Shown: in pieces, positions 30,781-43,165 of the stretch
Layout of the letters: each line of letters begins with the position of its first letter
Numbering within the stretch: the first letter of the stretch is position 1
Origin: an uncultured Chloroflexia bacterium
Lineage (GTDB): Bacteria > Chloroflexota > Limnocylindria > Limnocylindrales > CSP1-4
Reading direction: 5' to 3'
Assembly: GCA_963768655.1 (NCBI GenBank)
Contig: CAVYIM010000009.1
Location: 192,001-256,000, forward strand
Length of the DNA stretch: 64,000 nt
Translations under genes and position numbers: made by a program
The notes under the pieces: model-generated
Told to the model about the DNA's origin: nothing
Databases searched by the model: none
Seen by the model: only the letters and a program-made list of their open reading frames with translations

Positions 30781-32277
30781 CTACCAGCGCGGGGCGATCT
30801 GTCCGTCGAGGAGGTCGCGGGGCGACACGCGCGGCCGGATGAGACAGGCATGGCCGCCGCGGACCGCCACCTCGACGGCGGTCGGATGCGATAGGAAGAA
30901 CGGCATCGACTCGGTGAAGCCGTAGGCGCCCGCGTCAAGGACGGCGACCAGATCGCCGACCTGGGGGCGTGGCAGCTTCGCCTGGAGTGAGAAGACGTCG
31001 ATGCCGGTACACAGCGGCCCGGCGACGGTCGTGGGAACGAGGTCGCGCGTGTCGGCGTCCGGAGCGAGGACCGCCAGGCGATGTTCCTGGCGCACGAGCG
31101 CGGGCCTGACGAGGTGGTGGATGCCACCGTCCAGGATCGCGACCGGTGCGTCCGGCGTGCCCTTGACGTCCACGACCCGGGCCAGGTACGCGCCCGCTGG
31201 ACCTACGAGGAATCGGCCCGGCTCCAGCAGCACTTCCATCTCGCGCAGGGCGGGGTCGCGATCCCAGCGGCCTCGCAACTCCTCCAGCCGCGAGCCCAGC
31301 AGGGCCAGGTCGAGCGGCTGCTCCCCGTCGGCGTAGGGGATCCCGAGACCGCCCCCAGCGTCGACCAGGCGGAGAGGGACGCCCGACGCTCCGGCCACTT
31401 CCTCGCCTACCGACACGAGCGCCGCCACGTGATCCGCGATGCGGCCGGCGTCGAGCACGTTGGAGGCGCCGAAAGCGTGGATGCCGAGCAGCTCCAGGTT
31501 CGGCGATTTCGCCGCGGCCGCGGCGGCTTCCTTCAGGACCGGCAGCGGCATGCCGAACTTTCCCGCGGCGCCGCCGATGAGGCGGACGCGCTCGAACTTC
31601 GCGTCGTCGGCGACGGACAGGCGGAGCATGATCGGCTGGCGGCGGCGAAGGCGCGCGGCGATCGCGTCGAGGCGGGTGAGCTCGCCGGGCGACTCGACGG
31701 TGACGACGCCGATGCAGGCCGTGACGGCGGCGGCGAGTTCGTCGTCGCGCTTGCCGGGGCCGGTCATGGCAATCGACACGGGGGCGAAGCCGGCTCGCAG
31801 AACTGCCTCCAGCTCACCGCCCGAGGCGACGTCCGCGCTTATGCCGGAGCCGGCGACGTGGGTCAGGACTCCGAGCGCGGGATTGGCCTTGACCGCGAAG
31901 GCGAGGCGGAAGCCGAACGGGAGGACGGCACCCAGGGCGTCGATGCGGCGGCCGATCAGGTCCAGGTCGTAGACGTAGAGAGGAGTGCCGAAGTCGGTGG
32001 CGAGCATGTGAGGCGCGAGGCCGGCCAGCAGGCCGTTGCGCAGCAAGTCGTCGATCGGAGGCGCCTCGGGCTCCGCCTTCGGTTCGACCGCCTGGGCCGC
32101 CGCCTTGGCCTCGACCGCCTGGGCCGCCGCCTGGGCCTCGACCGCCTGGGCCGCCGCGGGTTCGACCGCCTCGGGCTCCGCCTTCGGTTCGACCGCCTGG
32201 GCCGCCGCGGGTTCGACCGTCGGTTCGACTGCCTGCTCGACCGGCTTGGGTTCGACTGGCTCGTCCTCCGAAGTCAC
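30781..32277 (-). CDS. lysA: Diaminopimelate decarboxylase with repetitive N-terminal extension
   Basis: FGTPLYVYD, FAVKAN (PLP lysine), DVASGGE, KFG, GGGLG, EPGRFLV, GPLCT, AGAYG; last gene of dap operon. Confidence 0.88.
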   Translation of the reverse strand: MTSEDEPVEPKPVEQAVEPTVEPAAAQAVEPKAEPEAVEPAAAQAVEAQAAAQAVEAKAAAQAVEPKAEPEAPPIDDLLRNGLLAGLAPHMLATDFGTPLYVYDLDLIGRRIDALGAVLPFGFRLAFAVKANPALGVLTHVAGSGISADVASGGELEAVLRAGFAPVSIAMTGPGKRDDELAAAVTACIGVVTVESPGELTRLDAIAARLRRRQPIMLRLSVADDAKFERVRLIGGAAGKFGMPLPVLKEAAAAAAKSPNLELLGIHAFGASNVLDAGRIADHVAALVSVGEEVAGASGVPLRLVDAGGGLGIPYADGEQPLDLALLGSRLEELRGRWDRDPALREMEVLLEPGRFLVGPAGAYLARVVDVKGTPDAPVAILDGGIHHLVRPALVRQEHRLAVLAPDADTRDLVPTTVAGPLCTGIDVFSLQAKLPRPQVGDLVAVLDAGAYGFTESMPFFLSHPTAVEVAVRGGHACLIRPRVSPRDLLDGQIAPRW

Positions 32278-33098
32278 CGCAATGCCTCCTGCAGCGCGAC
32301 TCGCGCATCCGTGCGCACGTCCCGGTATTTCACCACGACCGCGGCCGAGAGGCCGATGCCGTTGCTCTCCGCGAACTGGCCCCGGGCCTGCCGCACTCCC
32401 GGAGCGACGACCGCGCCGGCGGGCACGACCAGCGGCTCGTCCAGCGTCCCGATCAGAACGCGGCCGTGGACCAGGTCGTAGAGGCGGCTCGTGCCCGTCA
32501 GGATGACCCCGGCCGCGATCACCGCGCCGCGCTTGACGAGCACGCCCTCGAGCAGCGCCGACTGGGCGCCGACGAAGACCTCGTCCTCGACGATGACCGG
32601 GCGGCGGCCGGCCGGCTCCAGCACGCCGCCGATCTGGACCGCGGCCGAAAGGTGGACGCGCGACCCGATCTGGGCGCACGAGCCGACCAGAACGTGGGAG
32701 TCGACCATCGTGCCCTCGCCGACCCAGGCCCCGACGTTGATGTAGGAGGGCGGCATTATCGTCACGCCGGGTCCGAGGTAGACGCCGCCACGGACCGTGG
32801 TGCCGCCGGGAACGACGCGCCACGGCTTGCCGGCCGCCGCCGCCGCGCGGGCCTCCGCGGAGTCGAGCAGGTCCTTCACCGGCAGCCCCACGCGGTCGCG
32901 GAACTGGAACGCGCCATCGAGGTCCCACGTTCGAGTCTCGCGGTTGGCGAAAAGACCCAGGATGGCCGACTGCACGGCCGGGTCGACGCGCCAGCCGCCG
33001 GGCGCGTCCGGGTCGGGGCAGGCCACCCGGATTCGGCCGGAGTCGAGGTCGGACAGGATCTGGGATGGAGTTCGGTCCTGCTCGGTTCGTTCGTTCAC
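32274..33098 (-). CDS. dapD: Tetrahydrodipicolinate N-succinyltransferase
   Basis: RVVPGG, MPPSYINVGAWV..GTMVDSHVLVGSCAQIG, IGGVLEP. Confidence 0.93.
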   Translation of the reverse strand: MNERTEQDRTPSQILSDLDSGRIRVACPDPDAPGGWRVDPAVQSAILGLFANRETRTWDLDGAFQFRDRVGLPVKDLLDSAEARAAAAAGKPWRVVPGGTTVRGGVYLGPGVTIMPPSYINVGAWVGEGTMVDSHVLVGSCAQIGSRVHLSAAVQIGGVLEPAGRRPVIVEDEVFVGAQSALLEGVLVKRGAVIAAGVILTGTSRLYDLVHGRVLIGTLDEPLVVPAGAVVAPGVRQARGQFAESNGIGLSAAVVVKYRDVRTDARVALQEALR

Positions 33099-33140: not shown

Positions 33141-34190
33141 TCACGCGTGTGCCGTCGCAGTCGCCCGCACGATTGCCAGTCGCGCCGTCGAACGCTTCCG
33201 CGCACTCGGTCCGATCGAGCCGGCCGAGCTGCCGTCACCGCCGGCCCCGCTCTCGGCTCGGGCGCCGGCCGTTCCGTCGAGATCCAGGGCGCCGGTCGTC
33301 TCGAGGATCAGGCGCAGGCGGTTCCGATGCGCCTCCTCGAGCGGCAGCAGCGGCGGACGCACCATGTCCGTCGTCAGGCCCATCAGCGCCAGGGCCGCCT
33401 TGACCGGGACCGGGTTCGGCCCGCCGACGAAGTTGGCCTTCATCAGCGGCAGCCAGCGCTCGTGGATCCGGCGTGCCGTGTCCCAGTCGCCGGCGAACGC
33501 CGCGGCGCACATGGCCGCCATCTCACCGGGGATCTCGTTGGCGCAGGTGCAGATCACGCCGTCGCCGCCCATCGCCAGCATCGGCAGGGTCCAGACGTCG
33601 TCGCCGGCCATGACCGAGAAGCCGGCCGGCCGCTCGCGCAGGATGCCCGCGATCTGGTCCATGCTGGCCGAGGCTTCCTTGACGGCCACGATCCTGGGGT
33701 GCTCGGCCAGACGCATCAGGGTCGCCGGCTCGACGTTGACGCCGGTCCGGCTCGGGACGTTGTAGACGACGATCGGCAGGGCTCCGTCGTCGGCGATGGC
33801 CCGGAAGTGGGCCTCGATCATGCGCTGATCCGGTTTGTTGTAGTACGGGGCGACGCACATCGCCGCGTCGGCGCCGAGGCCCGCGGCGCGCCGAGTGGCG
33901 AGGATCGTGGCCGCGGTGTCGTTTAGCCCGGTGTTGGCGACGATCTTGACGCGGCATCGCGACGGGCGCTCGGAGGCGATCTCGGCGGCGGTGCCGACCA
34001 GCCACTCTCGCTCTTCGGGGCTGAGCGTCGGGCTTTCGCCGGTGCTGGCGGCCAGGACGAGGCCGTCGATGCAGGCGTCGAGCTGGCGGCGGACCAGCGC
34101 GTCGAATGCCGGCTTGTCGACGGCGCCGTCGAGCGTGAAGGGTGTGACGAGGGCCGTGAAGGCTCCTCGGATGTGTCGTGCTGGTGGCAT
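33141..34190 (-). CDS. dapA: 4-hydroxy-tetrahydrodipicolinate synthase
   Basis: TALVTPF, STGESPTL, PYYNKP, YNVPSRTG, VKEAS, PNPVPVK. Confidence 0.95.
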   Translation of the reverse strand: MPPARHIRGAFTALVTPFTLDGAVDKPAFDALVRRQLDACIDGLVLAASTGESPTLSPEEREWLVGTAAEIASERPSRCRVKIVANTGLNDTAATILATRRAAGLGADAAMCVAPYYNKPDQRMIEAHFRAIADDGALPIVVYNVPSRTGVNVEPATLMRLAEHPRIVAVKEASASMDQIAGILRERPAGFSVMAGDDVWTLPMLAMGGDGVICTCANEIPGEMAAMCAAAFAGDWDTARRIHERWLPLMKANFVGGPNPVPVKAALALMGLTTDMVRPPLLPLEEAHRNRLRLILETTGALDLDGTAGARAESGAGGDGSSAGSIGPSARKRSTARLAIVRATATAHA

Positions 34191-34224: not shown

Positions 34225-35019
34225 CTATCTGGGAGGGGCGGCGGCCGCGGCCGGCTGGGCTTTGGTGGCCGCGATCATGTCGTCGACGACTTCATCGAAT
34301 GTATGGAAGCCTGGCGAGCGCGGTTCGGCCCGCAGCCATTCGGCGGCCGTGACGGCGCCCGAGGCGTAGGCCGAGCGATCTCTTGCGGTGAGCCGCATCT
34401 CCAGGCTCTCGCCCGGTGCGTCGAAGCCGACGAGGTGCATTCCCGGAGCGGCTCCGGCCCGGATCACAGCCACGTCCAGCTCCTCGGGCGCGGGGGCGCC
34501 GTGGGCGAGCTGCTGGGCCACGCGCGTCTTGCGGGGGTGGGCGGCGATGAGCCGCCGCGACAGCTCGATGGCTGTTCCCGACGGGCGGTCCGCTTTGGTG
34601 CGGCGGTGCCACTCGACGATGTAAGGGTCGTAGTCCGCGAACGGGCCGAAGAGCCGGGCGGCCTCTTCGACGAGGCGGGCGAAGAGCATCACGCCCAGGC
34701 TGAAGTTGGCCGAGCCGACCGCGCTGGCCTCGCAGTCGGCCAGCAGATCGGCCACCGCGGCGCGATCGTCCGCCCAGCCGGTGGTGCCGATGACGAACTG
34801 GCGAATGCCTCCGGCCAGCGCTGCGCGAACGTTGGCCAGGACGGCATCGCCCTGGCTGAACTCGAACAGCACCTGGGCTCCGAGGAAGCGGCCAGGCTCG
34901 TGGCCGGCGGTCTGATCGACGGGCATGCCCAGGATCGCGCTCGGTGGCGTGCCGCGACCGGCGAGCACAGCCGCGACCGCTCGACCCATTCCGCCATCCC
35001 CGGCGACGATGCTCAACAT
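34225..35019 (-). CDS. dapB: 4-hydroxy-tetrahydrodipicolinate reductase
   Basis: GDGGMG, IGTTGW, NFSLGV, EWHRRTKADRPSGTA; GGAGG RBS. Confidence 0.93.
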   Translation of the reverse strand: MLSIVAGDGGMGRAVAAVLAGRGTPPSAILGMPVDQTAGHEPGRFLGAQVLFEFSQGDAVLANVRAALAGGIRQFVIGTTGWADDRAAVADLLADCEASAVGSANFSLGVMLFARLVEEAARLFGPFADYDPYIVEWHRRTKADRPSGTAIELSRRLIAAHPRKTRVAQQLAHGAPAPEELDVAVIRAGAAPGMHLVGFDAPGESLEMRLTARDRSAYASGAVTAAEWLRAEPRSPGFHTFDEVVDDMIAATKAQPAAAAAPPR

Positions 35020-35071
35020 TCCGGTGCCTCCAGTGTCGTCCCCCGACGGACCGCCCAGTCCGCGGACCGAT

Positions 35072-35116
35072 GAAAACAAGAGGGCCGCGGCACCAGCCCT
35101 CGGTGTCGCGGCCCTC
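35072..35116 (-). terminator. Intrinsic terminator (attenuator) in the dap operon leader
   Basis: Minus strand GAGGGCCGCGACACC-gagggct-GGTGCCGCGGCCCTC-TTGTTTT. Confidence 0.85.
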
Positions 35117-35162
35117 GGAGCCTTGCCCTGGCTCCGCGGTTCGTCTCGAACTCAGCAGAGCC

Positions 35163-35231
35163 TCAGGGCCGAGCCTCCCGGCTGGGCCGCCGACGCTTGG
35201 ACTTGGGCTTGGCGAGGATCTGAACGAACAT
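35163..35231 (-). CDS. Putative lysine-sensing leader peptide MFVQILAKPKSKRRRPSREARP (22 aa)
   Basis: Three clustered AAG codons; ATG 9 nt after a -10 box; followed by terminator and dapB. Confidence 0.72.
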   Translation of the reverse strand: MFVQILAKPKSKRRRPSREARP

Positions 35232-35240
35232 AGCCCGCGG

Positions 35241-35270
35241 ATTATGCACTACCGTCGCGACGATGCGCAA
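35241..35270 (-). promoter_or_regulatory. Sigma70-type promoter TTGCGC-N18-CATAAT of dap operon
   Basis: Motif match with TG near the -10; same geometry as met leader promoter. Confidence 0.65.
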
Positions 35271-35377
35271 GTGTTGCGGACACTATGCAGGCTGCATGGA
35301 GCGGTTATGCACCAGGGCATCCAGGGCGGATAGGACGTTCGAATCCAATCCCGGCCGGCCGGCCCGCCTGTCACTCG

Positions 35378-36328
35378 CTACAGAGGGCGCCGGCGTCGCA
35401 CCACGAGAGCCGTCAGGATCAGCAGACCGGCTGAGGCGGCCATCATTCCGGCCGAGTCGACCGCCTCGGCGAACGGGTGACACGATCCCGGAACGAGGCG
35501 ATTGACGATGGTCGATCCTGCGGGCGGCCAGATGCTGTTGCCGTTCGCGTCGACCTCGAATGGGCGTTCCAGGACCGACACGAGATCCCCCGACGGGAGG
35601 CGGACGAACTGGTCGAGTAGGATCGCGCCGTCGTAGTTCCCCGATGTCTCGTCCACCATCACCGCCTGGCTCGGGATCCAGGTCGCCTCGGCGACGAACG
35701 AAGTCACGGTCAAGACAAGCCCGAGCGCCGCGGCGACTATCAGCGCCGGCAGGACACGGCCCATGATCGCGCCGACCAGCACCGCGGCGGCGAAGACCAT
35801 GAACCCGATGGCGACCACATCGAGGCCGCGGCTGCTCTCGTCGTAGAAGGAGAGCAGAGGGTCCACATACGGTTGCCGAGCCCGCTGCAGCTCGGTCGCG
35901 GCGACGGCTGAGATCGAGAACAGGATCAACAGGATCACGGCCACGGGTCCGACCCGGCAGACGAGCCAGCGCGTTCGCGAGGGAGCGAGAGACCAGGCGA
36001 TGGCTGCGGTGCGTTCCTCGATCTCACGGGCAACGAGCGACACGCCGGCGAAGAGGCCGGCGACGGGGGCGATGCCACCGAAGATGCCCATGAGTGGGCT
36101 GGCCCACGTGGCGTCGATCTGGCGGAACCGGTCTTCTTGCGCCTGGCATGCAGCGAGAGCCGATCCGCCGACCGCAGCGCCCGGCAACGAGTCGAAGCAG
36201 GGCGCGGAGGCGGCGCGGAGGTTCGCCTCGATGATGAATGCCGCGATGGATGCCGCGGCGACCATTGCGGCCACTGCCAGCAGCGTGAAGCGATGGAGGC
36301 GGAGAGTCAGGTGAACCTGGGTCAGCAT
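35378..36328 (-). CDS. ABC-2 type exporter permease
   Basis: GVSLVAREIEERT..AWSLAPSRTRWL motif; multiple TM helices. Confidence 0.85.
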   Translation of the reverse strand: MLTQVHLTLRLHRFTLLAVAAMVAAASIAAFIIEANLRAASAPCFDSLPGAAVGGSALAACQAQEDRFRQIDATWASPLMGIFGGIAPVAGLFAGVSLVAREIEERTAAIAWSLAPSRTRWLVCRVGPVAVILLILFSISAVAATELQRARQPYVDPLLSFYDESSRGLDVVAIGFMVFAAAVLVGAIMGRVLPALIVAAALGLVLTVTSFVAEATWIPSQAVMVDETSGNYDGAILLDQFVRLPSGDLVSVLERPFEVDANGNSIWPPAGSTIVNRLVPGSCHPFAEAVDSAGMMAASAGLLILTALVVRRRRPL

Positions 36329-40192: not shown

Positions 40193-41218
40193 CTACTTGA
40201 GCGCCTCGGCCAGAAGTGCCGTCAGCTGATCCCACTCCACCAGGAACGCGTCGTGGCCCTTCGTGGAGTGGATCTCGCGGTAGGCGGCGTCCATGCCCGC
40301 CGCCGTCGCGGCCTTCACCATCTCCTGCACCTGGGTCGTGCCGTAGAGGATGTCGCCTTCGATGCCGACGCCGGTCAAGCGCGTCCCGTAGGCGGCCAGC
40401 CGCTGCAGAGCGGCAACCGCACCGCCGCGGTCGCGGCCGATGTCGTGCGTGTCCATCGCCCACACGAGCGTGCGGTACGTGTCCTCGTCGAAGCGCTCGA
40501 GCAGCTTTCGGCCCTGGTGGCGAAGATAGCTGACAATCGAGGGCGTGCCGTCGGGCTCGACGCGCCCGGCGAAGCGCTGCTCGAAGTCGATCTCGCTGCG
40601 GTAGGTCGTGATGGCCAGCTGCCGGGCCAGGTCCAGGCCCTCCAGGCCGAGCTTGTCGATGATCTCGAGCTGGATGTTGTCCCAGCCCACCGCGAGCTGG
40701 CCGATCCGAGCGGGCGCGGCGATCGGCACGACGCGACTGACCTCGCCGGGCCGCTCGAGGGCAACCTCCAGCGCGACCATGCCCCCGAGCGACCCGCCCA
40801 CCGCCAGAGCGAGCTTGCCGATCCCCAGCGCGTCGAGCAGCCGCCACTGGGCGCGGGCTTGATCCCGGACCGTGACCCTGGGAAAGGCCCGACCGTAGGG
40901 CTTGCCGGTCACGGCGTTCCGTGAGATCGGGCCGCTGGTGCCGTACCGGCTGCCCAGCAGGTTCATGCAGATGACGCCGAACTTGTCCGTATCGAGCACC
41001 TGGCCGGGGCCGATGAGCGGCGCCCACCAGTCGCCGGCGGCGTCCGCCGAGCCGGTGAGGGCGTGGACGACCAGGATCTGGCGCCCTTCGCCGATCGGGA
41101 CGCCGTCGTGGCGGTAGGCCGCGACCAGGTCCGGCAGGACCGCACCGGACTCGAGCGCGAAACGGCCCAGCCAGCGAGAGACGATCTTGCCGGTCTGCGG
41201 GTCGCTCGATTTGTCCAC
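40193..41218 (-). CDS. metX: Homoserine O-acetyltransferase (start uncertain)
   Basis: VHALTGSA, GGSLGGM nucleophile, GHDAFL; downstream of metY. Confidence 0.9.
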   Translation of the reverse strand: MDKSSDPQTGKIVSRWLGRFALESGAVLPDLVAAYRHDGVPIGEGRQILVVHALTGSADAAGDWWAPLIGPGQVLDTDKFGVICMNLLGSRYGTSGPISRNAVTGKPYGRAFPRVTVRDQARAQWRLLDALGIGKLALAVGGSLGGMVALEVALERPGEVSRVVPIAAPARIGQLAVGWDNIQLEIIDKLGLEGLDLARQLAITTYRSEIDFEQRFAGRVEPDGTPSIVSYLRHQGRKLLERFDEDTYRTLVWAMDTHDIGRDRGGAVAALQRLAAYGTRLTGVGIEGDILYGTTQVQEMVKAATAAGMDAAYREIHSTKGHDAFLVEWDQLTALLAEALK

Positions 41219-41481
41219 GTCGTTCAGGCTACGAAAACCGGGGTCGGCGCGTGCGGTCGAAACGCCGGGATCGGCGGCGATGAAACCCGATTCGCCGCGC
41301 CGATTGCCCTCGTCGCCCGCAGCCGAGACTGGCGACTCGGGCGCGCCGAGCCCCGCGGGGGACCCGGCGCGCGTAGATTCGACTCCGATGGCGGCTCCGG
41401 TGGGCGCGGGCCGGCCGCGCACCTCCGAGATCCATCGAATTGCCGGTTTCGATTTCATGGGGCTACTTGACGCTGCCACGC

Positions 41482-42984
<1,503 letters not shown>

Positions 42985-43015
42985 TCAGCTCAGTGGCGCG
43001 TCCAACGCCGGAGCC

Positions 43016-43126
43016 TCAGACCCCGTCCTCCGCACTTCGGGGCCGCCCGGGCATGGACATCATGGAACCGCGCAGGCACGAGGCCTGGCGCGAGTTCTCC
43101 CGGTGGCGCGAAGTGCGGGCGTTCAT
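43016..43126 (-). CDS. Putative methionine-sensing leader peptide MNARTSRHRENSRQASCLRGSMMSMPGRPRSAEDGV (36 aa)
   Basis: ATG ATG TCC ATG cluster; ATG 9 nt after a -10 box; followed by terminator and metY. Confidence 0.75.
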   Translation of the reverse strand: MNARTSRHRENSRQASCLRGSMMSMPGRPRSAEDGV

Positions 43127-43135
43127 TGGCCGCGA

Positions 43136-43165
43136 AGCATAGGGGCTCCGCGGCCAATTGCGCAA
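43136..43165 (-). promoter_or_regulatory. Sigma70-type promoter TTGCGC-N18-TATGCT of met operon
   Basis: Motif match; same geometry as dap leader promoter. Confidence 0.65.

Follow-up and report, generated by a model that had tools for sequence, protein, structure and literature searches.

Transcription attenuation by a translated leader peptide is known classically from the trpL, hisL, thrL, leuL, pheL and ilvL leaders of enterobacterial amino-acid operons, and lysine genes are textbook targets of riboswitches and of protein regulators. The lysine riboswitch (L-box, RF00168) is an aptamer of about 180 nucleotides (nt) that senses free lysine with no ribosome taking part, and is associated with lysC, dapA, dapB and lysA. 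For the lysine (aminoadipate) cluster of Thermus thermophilus, leader-peptide attenuation has reportedly been described. According to part of the text of Canestrari et al. (bioRxiv 10.1101/834739), mycobacterial leaderless polycysteine short open reading frames (ORFs) are sensory, stand ahead of biosynthetic operons and make up a 'ribulon', in which a stalled ribosome frees a sequestered ribosome-binding site and control is translational. Here we analysed a 64,000-nt stretch of DNA (the window) from an uncultured Chloroflexia bacterium (assembly GCA_963768655.1, contig CAVYIM010000009.1), in which a leader on the minus strand, carrying a short ORF with three Lys codons followed by a U-tailed terminator, precedes the lysine biosynthesis genes dapB-dapA-dapD-lysA. 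In our view this element very likely attenuates transcription specifically in response to lysine, through a ribosome that translates the leader peptide. The existence of a switch at this position is well supported, and its direction, with a shortage of lysine allowing read-through, is the one that the biosynthetic nature of the operon and the predicted folds would suggest.

The arrangement TTGCGC-N18-CATAAT-N9-ATG, which an earlier note made on this DNA from the letters alone had picked out on the minus strand, was found in place, with a -35-like hexamer TTGCGC at 35265-35270 (read from the sequence, matching TTGACA at three of six positions), an 18-nt spacer, a -10 hexamer CATAAT at 35241-35246 that lies inside a conserved GTGCATAAT, and a further spacer of 9 nt to the leader ATG at 35231-35229. 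As the -10 box lies so near to the ATG, the messenger RNA should be leaderless or nearly so, its first base probably lying on the ATG itself or no more than about 3 nt away; the leader ORF is without a Shine-Dalgarno sequence. The ORF that the same note had described is likewise present, running on the minus strand from 35231 to 35163 with 22 codons and a TGA at 35165-35163 (MFVQILAKPKSKRRRPSREARP). Read in this frame, positions 35196-35210 hold the presumed regulatory codons AAG CCC AAG TCC AAG, the three Lys codons (K8, K10 and K12) being at 35210-35208, 35204-35202 and 35198-35196. The -10 region as a whole reads TGCATAAT. Further 5' of the -35 hexamer, at about 35283-35335 on the minus strand, several TGCATA/TATGCA-like motifs recur and are kept across the genus; they may serve as the operator of a protein regulator, or as tandem promoter-like sites.

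When 41 related genomes were searched for DapB, the gene was found in 23 of the 24 other genomes of the same genus and in none of 16 small genomes of a sister family, and the records of the DapB relatives were all of uncultured metagenome-assembled genomes, assigned to Chloroflexota, Candidatus Limnocylindria or Limnocylindrales. The genus set of 24 leaders, the window's own included, was alignable from promoter to terminator, with flanks that were not alignable. The ATG, the frame and the in-frame stop were kept in all 24, and the peptide was 22 amino acids long in 21 of them. Lys was found at positions 10 and 12 in 24/24 leaders and at position 8 in 19/24, with AAA replacing AAG at position 10 in two. 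Between the lysines, position 9 was either Pro or Ser and position 11 was Ser, Thr, Ala, Phe or Ile, and the seven N-terminal residues varied freely. Upstream of the ORF, a -35 block CTTGCGCAT or a close variant stood at equal distance in most of the 24 genus relatives, and GCATA[AC]T was found 6-9 nt 5' of the leader ATG in every one (9 nt in 21, 8 nt in one and 6 nt in two). Two individual leaders had peculiarities of their own: in L007 the -10 box and the first leader ORF bases are duplicated in tandem 5' of the ATG (TTGATGCATAATCCGCGGACCATGTT twice), and in L019 the terminator and dapB are set apart by an insertion of about 200 nt that consists of GGCCACTCGGCCC-like repeat units.

Short open frames are common at 70% G+C, the G+C content of the window, which would favour a chance ORF lying beside an ordinary terminator. 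However, the chance of finding at least three Lys codons in 22 codons at this locus is P = 0.0012 (AAG and AAA together making up 0.97% of the triplets of the window), the element is conserved over the 102 distinct leaders of the census described below, and alignability ends with the leader. Conservation is a stronger argument here than the codon-chance statistic, and we regard a chance origin as practically negligible.

The identity of the conserved codons was found to change with the operon downstream. The genome holds three paralogues on one scaffold, which were matched by a model, R2, at E values of 4e-28, 4.5e-14 and 1e-4 (the RNAalifold consensus of R2 was poor, at 13 pairs, and the three paralogues were recovered nonetheless), and the presence of Met or Cys codons in the paralogues before metY and cysE amounts to a natural codon swap. 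The Met paralogue, which lies in the window too, at about 42945-43146 on the minus strand, has TATGCT at 43141-43136, then 9 nt, then an ATG at 43126 which opens an ORF of 36 codons (43126-43016, with TGA at 43018-43016) ending ...SMMSMPGRPRSAEDGV and including S-M-M-S-M-P-G-R-P. Its U-tailed hairpin ends near 42945 and is followed by metY (41485-42819, minus strand; TIGR01326 above cut-off) and, 3' of metY, by metX (40196-41479, minus strand). The Cys paralogue (L159, G000:C3:579095-582231, with the leader at contig positions 580595-580790 on the minus strand) encodes MDSHNHNCLCPWRRPRRRR with C-L-C codons, has its ATG 6 nt after CATGAT with TTGACG upstream, and is followed by a serine acetyltransferase-like gene (NF041874 at 157 bits against a cut-off of 150, with the cysE model below its cut-off) and by a cysK fragment. 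A DNA search of 61 family genomes for Cys-type orthologues was convincing only in two other genomes of the same genus in the sample, where L164 and L165 stand in the same place and read C-F-C and C-S-C. Three further candidates for Cys leaders, L166, L168 and L169, proved to be coding sequence.

A census by nhmmer over 162 loci yielded 102 distinct leaders, drawn from genomes that are related and are not independent samples; it was used in place of a regular-expression census of L078-L157, which had often locked on the terminator arm. The earlier note had named Lys codons in orthologous dapB leaders as a check on its proposal, and K-x-K was present in all 24 genus leaders and in 81 of the 84 distinct leaders with DapB downstream, the others being two with K-K and one that was misparsed (K-S-K on separate reading). 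All nine leaders with MetY downstream had M-x-M codons (eight MCM and one MSM), as did three leaders with other genes downstream (M-C-M), and six of the 102 failed the frame parser, three of these being KPKSK on separate reading and three being left unread. The M-C-M leaders that do not have metY directly next to them are L063 (with a SCO4226-like gene), L069 (with an OsmC-like gene) and L065, whose downstream gene appears by eye to be a homologue of that of L063. In other genera the peptide reads ...SKKKLWRPCREARALGL, with shorter forms that carry K-A-K, K-S-K, K-Q-K or K-R-K, and weaker model matches showed the same scaffold, as ...N-M-C-M-R-W-R-P..., before a Cys/Met pyridoxal phosphate (PLP) enzyme. 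Because codon identity follows the operon on a shared scaffold, this is a strong argument for sensing by the ribosome and against a riboswitch; judged from the sequences, such a switch of codons with the operon would be hard to explain except by decoding.

A metabolite-binding riboswitch, responding to lysine or to a pathway intermediate and with the small ORF incidental, would be consistent with the high conservation and structure of the region between ORF and terminator, which folds better than shuffled sequence (z = -2.5, with 1/200 shuffles folding as well). Against it, the same scaffold stands before the Met and Cys operons with two codons as the only systematic difference, start codon, frame and stop are conserved, synonymous changes leave Lys in place, and there is no match to RF00168 or to any Rfam family. 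An Rfam scan of 34800-35600 at E <=10 returned 14 weak matches, none of them at gathering score and with no Lysine, T-box or leader family among them, in agreement with the earlier note, which had recognised neither a lysine riboswitch nor a T-box at the locus. Across the genome, which is 88.6% complete, no lysine riboswitch RF00168 was found (it was detected in control genomes) and no S-adenosylmethionine (SAM) riboswitch was found either. We therefore consider a riboswitch very improbable.

The AAG repeats might instead be read by an uncharged tRNA, in a T-box-like manner, or by an RNA-binding protein, the codons then being untranslated specifiers. The match between codon identity and the amino acid of the operon is what a T-box specifier would give, and sub-threshold T-box (RF00230) matches do occur elsewhere in the genome, at G000:C5:495568-495877, C7:239039-239285 and C5:25695-25815 (53.5, 41.4 and 27.5 bits, respectively, against 93), all three on other contigs than the leader. 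At the locus itself, however, there was no T-box match at E <=10, and two spaced in-frame codons, an ATG 6-9 nt after the -10 box and an in-frame stop inside a hairpin (P1, below) are not T-box features. As to a protein site, K8 and the middle codon are free to vary and AAA can stand in for AAG, which is better fitted by decoding, and we find either form of this explanation distinctly unlikely.

The ORF of the proposed attenuator is embedded in a set of hairpins, all on the minus strand. Hairpin P1 (segments 1:2, 35159-35197, -26.1 kcal/mol) runs from the last Lys codon to just beyond the stop codon and would act as an anti-antiterminator. Its segment 1 (35184-35194, codons 13-16) is also the 5' strand of a predicted antiterminator and pairs with 35105-35114, GTCGGCGGCCC (35194-35184) pairing with GGGCCGCGAC (35114-35105) over 10 pairs with one bulged G. 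Of the regulatory codons, those that are fixed stand four and two codons before the UGG/CGG codon which opens this segment. Hairpin P2 (35130-35162, -18.7 kcal/mol), directly 3' of the stop codon, forms the tip of a predicted long rod that holds the antiterminator. The terminator hairpin (segments 3:4, 35080-35116, -29.3 kcal/mol) shares its 5' arm, 35102-35116, with the antiterminator and is followed by a U-rich tail UUGUUUUC at 35072-35079, and a U-rich tract also follows the hairpin in the aligned relatives. The earlier note had seen the U-tailed terminator about 50 nt before dapB; it lies 52 nt 5' of the dapB ATG at 35019, and a terminator scan agreed, finding a single site where shuffled sequence would give 0.2.

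RNAalifold on the 24 leaders gave two consensus helices, P1 and the terminator, in which 97.7% of cells were paired and four pairs were changed on both sides, with none of 500 shuffles reaching the observed value and slid registers giving at most 54%. The third base of Arg13 (CGC/CGU) covaried with the stop codon (UAG/UAA; C-G in 16 leaders, U-A in five), and in the leader of the window a CGG at Arg13 is matched by a UGA stop. For the antiterminator 1:3, 98.4% of cells were paired in the 24 sequences, with one pair being C-G in 21 and U-A, A-U and U-G in one each. When the alignment was widened to 61 leaders of several genera, 97.7% of the 1:3 cells were paired and three pairs were changed on both sides, one pair being C-G in 56 leaders and U-A, A-U and U-G in one each, and another changing from C-G to U-A. 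The next pair outward was U-A in 27 of these leaders, C-G in 15, U-G in nine, A-U in one and G-C in one, with eight non-pairs, and the terminator was paired in 98.6% of cells (0/500 shuffles reaching the observed value). Compensatory changes were found in P1, terminator and antiterminator alike; these bear out the antiterminator that had been proposed between the sequence just after the Lys codons and the terminator 5' arm, and the covarying stems that had been suggested as a check on it.

An alternative antiterminator 2:3, in which the P1 3' strand and the stop codon pair with the terminator 5' arm, was 89.4% paired with no double change; all 500 shuffles did as well, and it was predicted in no fold. 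With compensatory changes in 1:3 and none in 2:3, the pairing scheme is therefore 1:2, 1:3, 3:4, which differs from the enterobacterial scheme of 1:2, 2:3, 3:4. A conserved arrest peptide (RWRPCREARP) was also considered and rejected: W is replaced by R in the window and in the Cys leaders and positions 17-18 vary, and such a peptide is unlikely because the conserved C-terminal codons change with the RNA pairing and not so as to preserve residues. The ORF, its Lys codons, the three covarying helices and the tracking of the operon by codon identity make up the conserved and observed part of the element.

To fold the leaders with a ribosome in place, the ribosome-covered stretch was forced single-stranded, and transcripts ending before segment 4 were taken as the point at which the switch is decided. 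When the front edge of the ribosome stood at the foot of P1 (alignment columns 29-41), these transcripts formed the antiterminator in 24/24 genus leaders and, over all leaders, in 82/82 Lys, 10/11 Met and 2/2 Cys leaders. With the edge at least 4 bases further, segment 1 was covered and the antiterminator was lost (0/24 genus, 0/82 Lys, 0/11 Met and 0/2 Cys leaders). In these folds the antiterminator made up the outer helix of a single long rod, where segment 2 pairs with sequence downstream of P2. The rod of the window has -57.2 kcal/mol, compared to -45.3 kcal/mol for the most stable fold of that stretch when segment 3 is left out. In full-length genus leaders the mean probability of the antiterminator was 0.06 for ribosome-free RNA and 0.04-0.06 when a ribosome sat on the stop codon, and it rose to 0.29 with the edge at column 39, peaked at 0.43 at column 41 and collapsed from column 43 (0.08). 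Work on the ribosomal helicase and on frameshift spacers puts the limit of RNA pairing at about 11 nt from the first P-site base; if RNA pairs up to that limit, column 41 is the front edge with Lys12 in the A site, and with a 15-nt edge the same column corresponds to Lys10. The placement of the regulatory codons would favour the antiterminator if the edge lies at columns 39-41, which depends on the footprint assumed.

The mechanism that we propose would begin with transcription starting at, or a few bases before, the ATG and with a ribosome loading on the leaderless messenger RNA. With Lys-tRNA plentiful, the ribosome would pass codons 13-22 to the stop, covering segment 1 and then segment 2; after its release P1 (1:2) would close, segment 3 would be free for segment 4, and the terminator would stop the RNA 52 nt before dapB. 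With Lys-tRNA scarce, the ribosome would wait at Lys codons 10-12, and its front edge would keep the foot of P1 open and GCGGCCC of segment 1 exposed. Segment 2 would then be captured by downstream sequence, with P2 extending into the long rod, and segment 1 would pair with the terminator 5' arm (1:3), allowing RNA polymerase to continue into dapB-dapA-dapD-lysA. Parts of this scheme are inferred, namely that the RNA starts without a leader, where the edge of the stalled ribosome lies, in what order folding proceeds and how the switch responds to lysine.

Several results weigh against such a scheme. A promoter scan called no promoter at the locus, because the -35-like hexamer matches its consensus at three of six positions only. 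Codons 2-11 showed no excess of third-position differences (0.32, 0.29 and 0.31 differences per site for the three positions), and a third-position coding signature was therefore rejected as support for translation, the case for which rests on the conserved start, frame, stop and codon identity; the N-terminal variation without such an excess suggested that it is not the peptide itself which is under selection, but the start, the length and the Lys codons. Each leader has only two or three regulatory codons. In full-length equilibrium folds the terminator won nearly everywhere, and in full-length Met and Cys leaders the probability of the antiterminator was about 0 under every mask. Conversely, in transcripts ending before segment 4 the antiterminator formed with no ribosome at all in 15/24 genus and 58/82 Lys leaders, and with a ribosome on the stop codon in 12-18/24 genus leaders (depending on the mask) and 74/82 Lys leaders. 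With a long footprint, whose front edge lies 15 nt beyond the first P-site base, a ribosome at K12 covered segment 1 and the antiterminator formed in 0/24. Folding under ribosome masks, which the earlier note had suggested, was favourable in part: the antiterminator was indeed preferred with the edge at the P1 foot, but the result was footprint-dependent and the antiterminator also appeared in supposed 'off' states. As it is predicted in those states, the off state depends on kinetics beyond equilibrium folds, and would have to rest on one of three things, namely a ribosome lying over segment 1 or 2 when the choice is made, rapid closing of P1 once the ribosome has left, or easy displacement of a bare antiterminator, the last starting from the free loop-side half of the terminator arm.

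The antiterminator obtained with a ribosome on the stop codon would also suit a translated leader that follows another logic, in which general translation capacity or coupling, or a ribosome lingering at the Pro-stop, decides. A Pro codon before a stop is a slow termination context, and the genus ORF ends in Pro-stop. Such a logic, however, leaves unexplained why it is exactly the two codons that differ from operon to operon; at the C-terminus no peptide is conserved, the changes there following the RNA pairing, and when the stop codon is masked in full-length RNA, the terminator prevails at a probability of 0.91-0.93. We regard this as unlikely, and retain the lysine-specific, ribosome-mediated attenuator as the preferred explanation.

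The distribution of the element was followed with a covariance model of the genus leaders, R1, which found it in 35 of 151 sampled genomes of the class, with 30/44 genomes in the bacterium's own family, 3/50 in a second family, 1/49 in a third and 0/6 in the small-genome sister family. In the bacterium's own genome R1 gave seven matches at E <=1, which were the leader, its terminator on the opposite strand, the Met paralogue (E 0.03) and four non-leaders. Of these four, L027, L030 and L032 were read, and L031 was a 26-nt partial match; L027 (G000:C3:631616-631738, minus strand) holds the C-terminal AAKP/EKPAAKP-like Lys/Ala/Pro repeats of a protein, followed by a terminator. Among the matches of R2, L160 was coding sequence and no leader, and L162 was a further one at E 0.43. 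A search of RNA libraries gave only two wetland metatranscriptomes, each with 4% of the sampled words, in which contigs of relatives 85-99% alike covered 35140-35301 and parts of dapB, one of which continued upstream of the promoter; as contigs cannot show starts, ends or strand, no inference on expression is drawn from them.

Downstream of the leader, and on the same strand, the operon order is dapB-dapA-dapD-lysA. The first gene, dapB (34225-35019), has Pfam matches to DapB_C and DapB_N, a GGAGG at 35027-35031 before its ATG at 35019, and an NCBIfam dapB score of 121 bits against a cut-off of 122. It is followed by dapA (33141-34190, Pfam DHDPS), by dapD (32274-33098, Pfam Hexapep/THDPS_N_2, with NCBIfam dapD above cut-off) and by lysA, which ends at 30781 (Pfam Orn_DAP_Arg_deC; NCBIfam lysA at 274.8 against a cut-off of 297.9). 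The open frame bearing lysA (30781-32928, minus strand) has 715 codons and overlaps dapD, and as the LysA match spans residues 307-709 only, the true lysA start lies much further downstream.

For the Limnocylindria more widely, we think it rather probable that one modular leaderless scaffold has been re-coded for at least three amino acids (K-x-K before dap/lysA, M-x-M before metY-metX and C-x-C before cysE-cysK) and replaces lysine and SAM riboswitches, with the stalled ribosome acting as a wedge at the P1 foot and the ribosome-adjacent strand, held in the rod, acting as the antiterminator. A class of uncultured soil and wetland Chloroflexota appears to sense its supply of lysine, methionine and cysteine via the ribosome. 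The three paralogues, differing essentially in two codons, are a natural experiment on the number of regulatory codons and their distance to the switch, and an RNA family for which Rfam 15 gave no match could be built from the roughly 100 distinct leaders. The element also points to leaderless translation in Chloroflexota. The principle is a classical one, and what is gained is breadth and design rules, not a new mechanism.

Set beside described systems, the locus shares with the L-box the kind of genes preceded and the use of a terminator, which L-boxes often employ, but the L-box itself was absent from the scans of locus and genome. The Thermus leader is said to be a Lys-codon short ORF too, in that case for the aminoadipate pathway and in another phylum, whereas the operon here is of the diaminopimelate pathway; if that case is real, lysine attenuation as such is not new. 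Literature searches returned no lysine leader-peptide attenuator of dap genes and no attenuator in Chloroflexota. A Thr/Lys leader peptide is suggested for Sinorhizobium in part of the text of PMC10117765, and the portions of PMC12612679, PMC12360218 and PMC10433800 that were available held nothing bearing on a lysine attenuator. Like the classical attenuators, the present leader has a short ORF rich in end-product codons, hairpins that exclude one another and an intrinsic terminator before the first structural gene, and the position of the ribosome is proposed to decide between them. It differs from them in an apparently leaderless ORF, without Shine-Dalgarno sequence and with its ATG 6-9 nt after the -10 box, in having only two regulatory codons, which are spaced by one codon and keep a constant distance to the switch, in its amino acid being lysine, in the lack of a match to any Rfam leader family, and in the scheme 1:2, 1:3, 3:4, where the antiterminator uses the ribosome-adjacent strand inside a long rod.

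The nearest published parallel found, as far as the part of that preprint allows a comparison, is that of the mycobacterial polycysteine short ORFs (10.1101/834739), which are likewise leaderless, respond through pausing at codons for the end product, as we infer here also, and have several loci sharing one device. According to the same part of the text, those are poly-Cys tracts in Actinobacteria, whereas here the target is a U-tailed terminator, the sensor is two spaced codons and the host belongs to the Chloroflexota. What appears, from sequence comparison, to be distinctive of the present element is the combination of a leaderless start, a two-codon X-n-X sensor, a 1:3 antiterminator embedded in a rod, and three re-coded paralogues.

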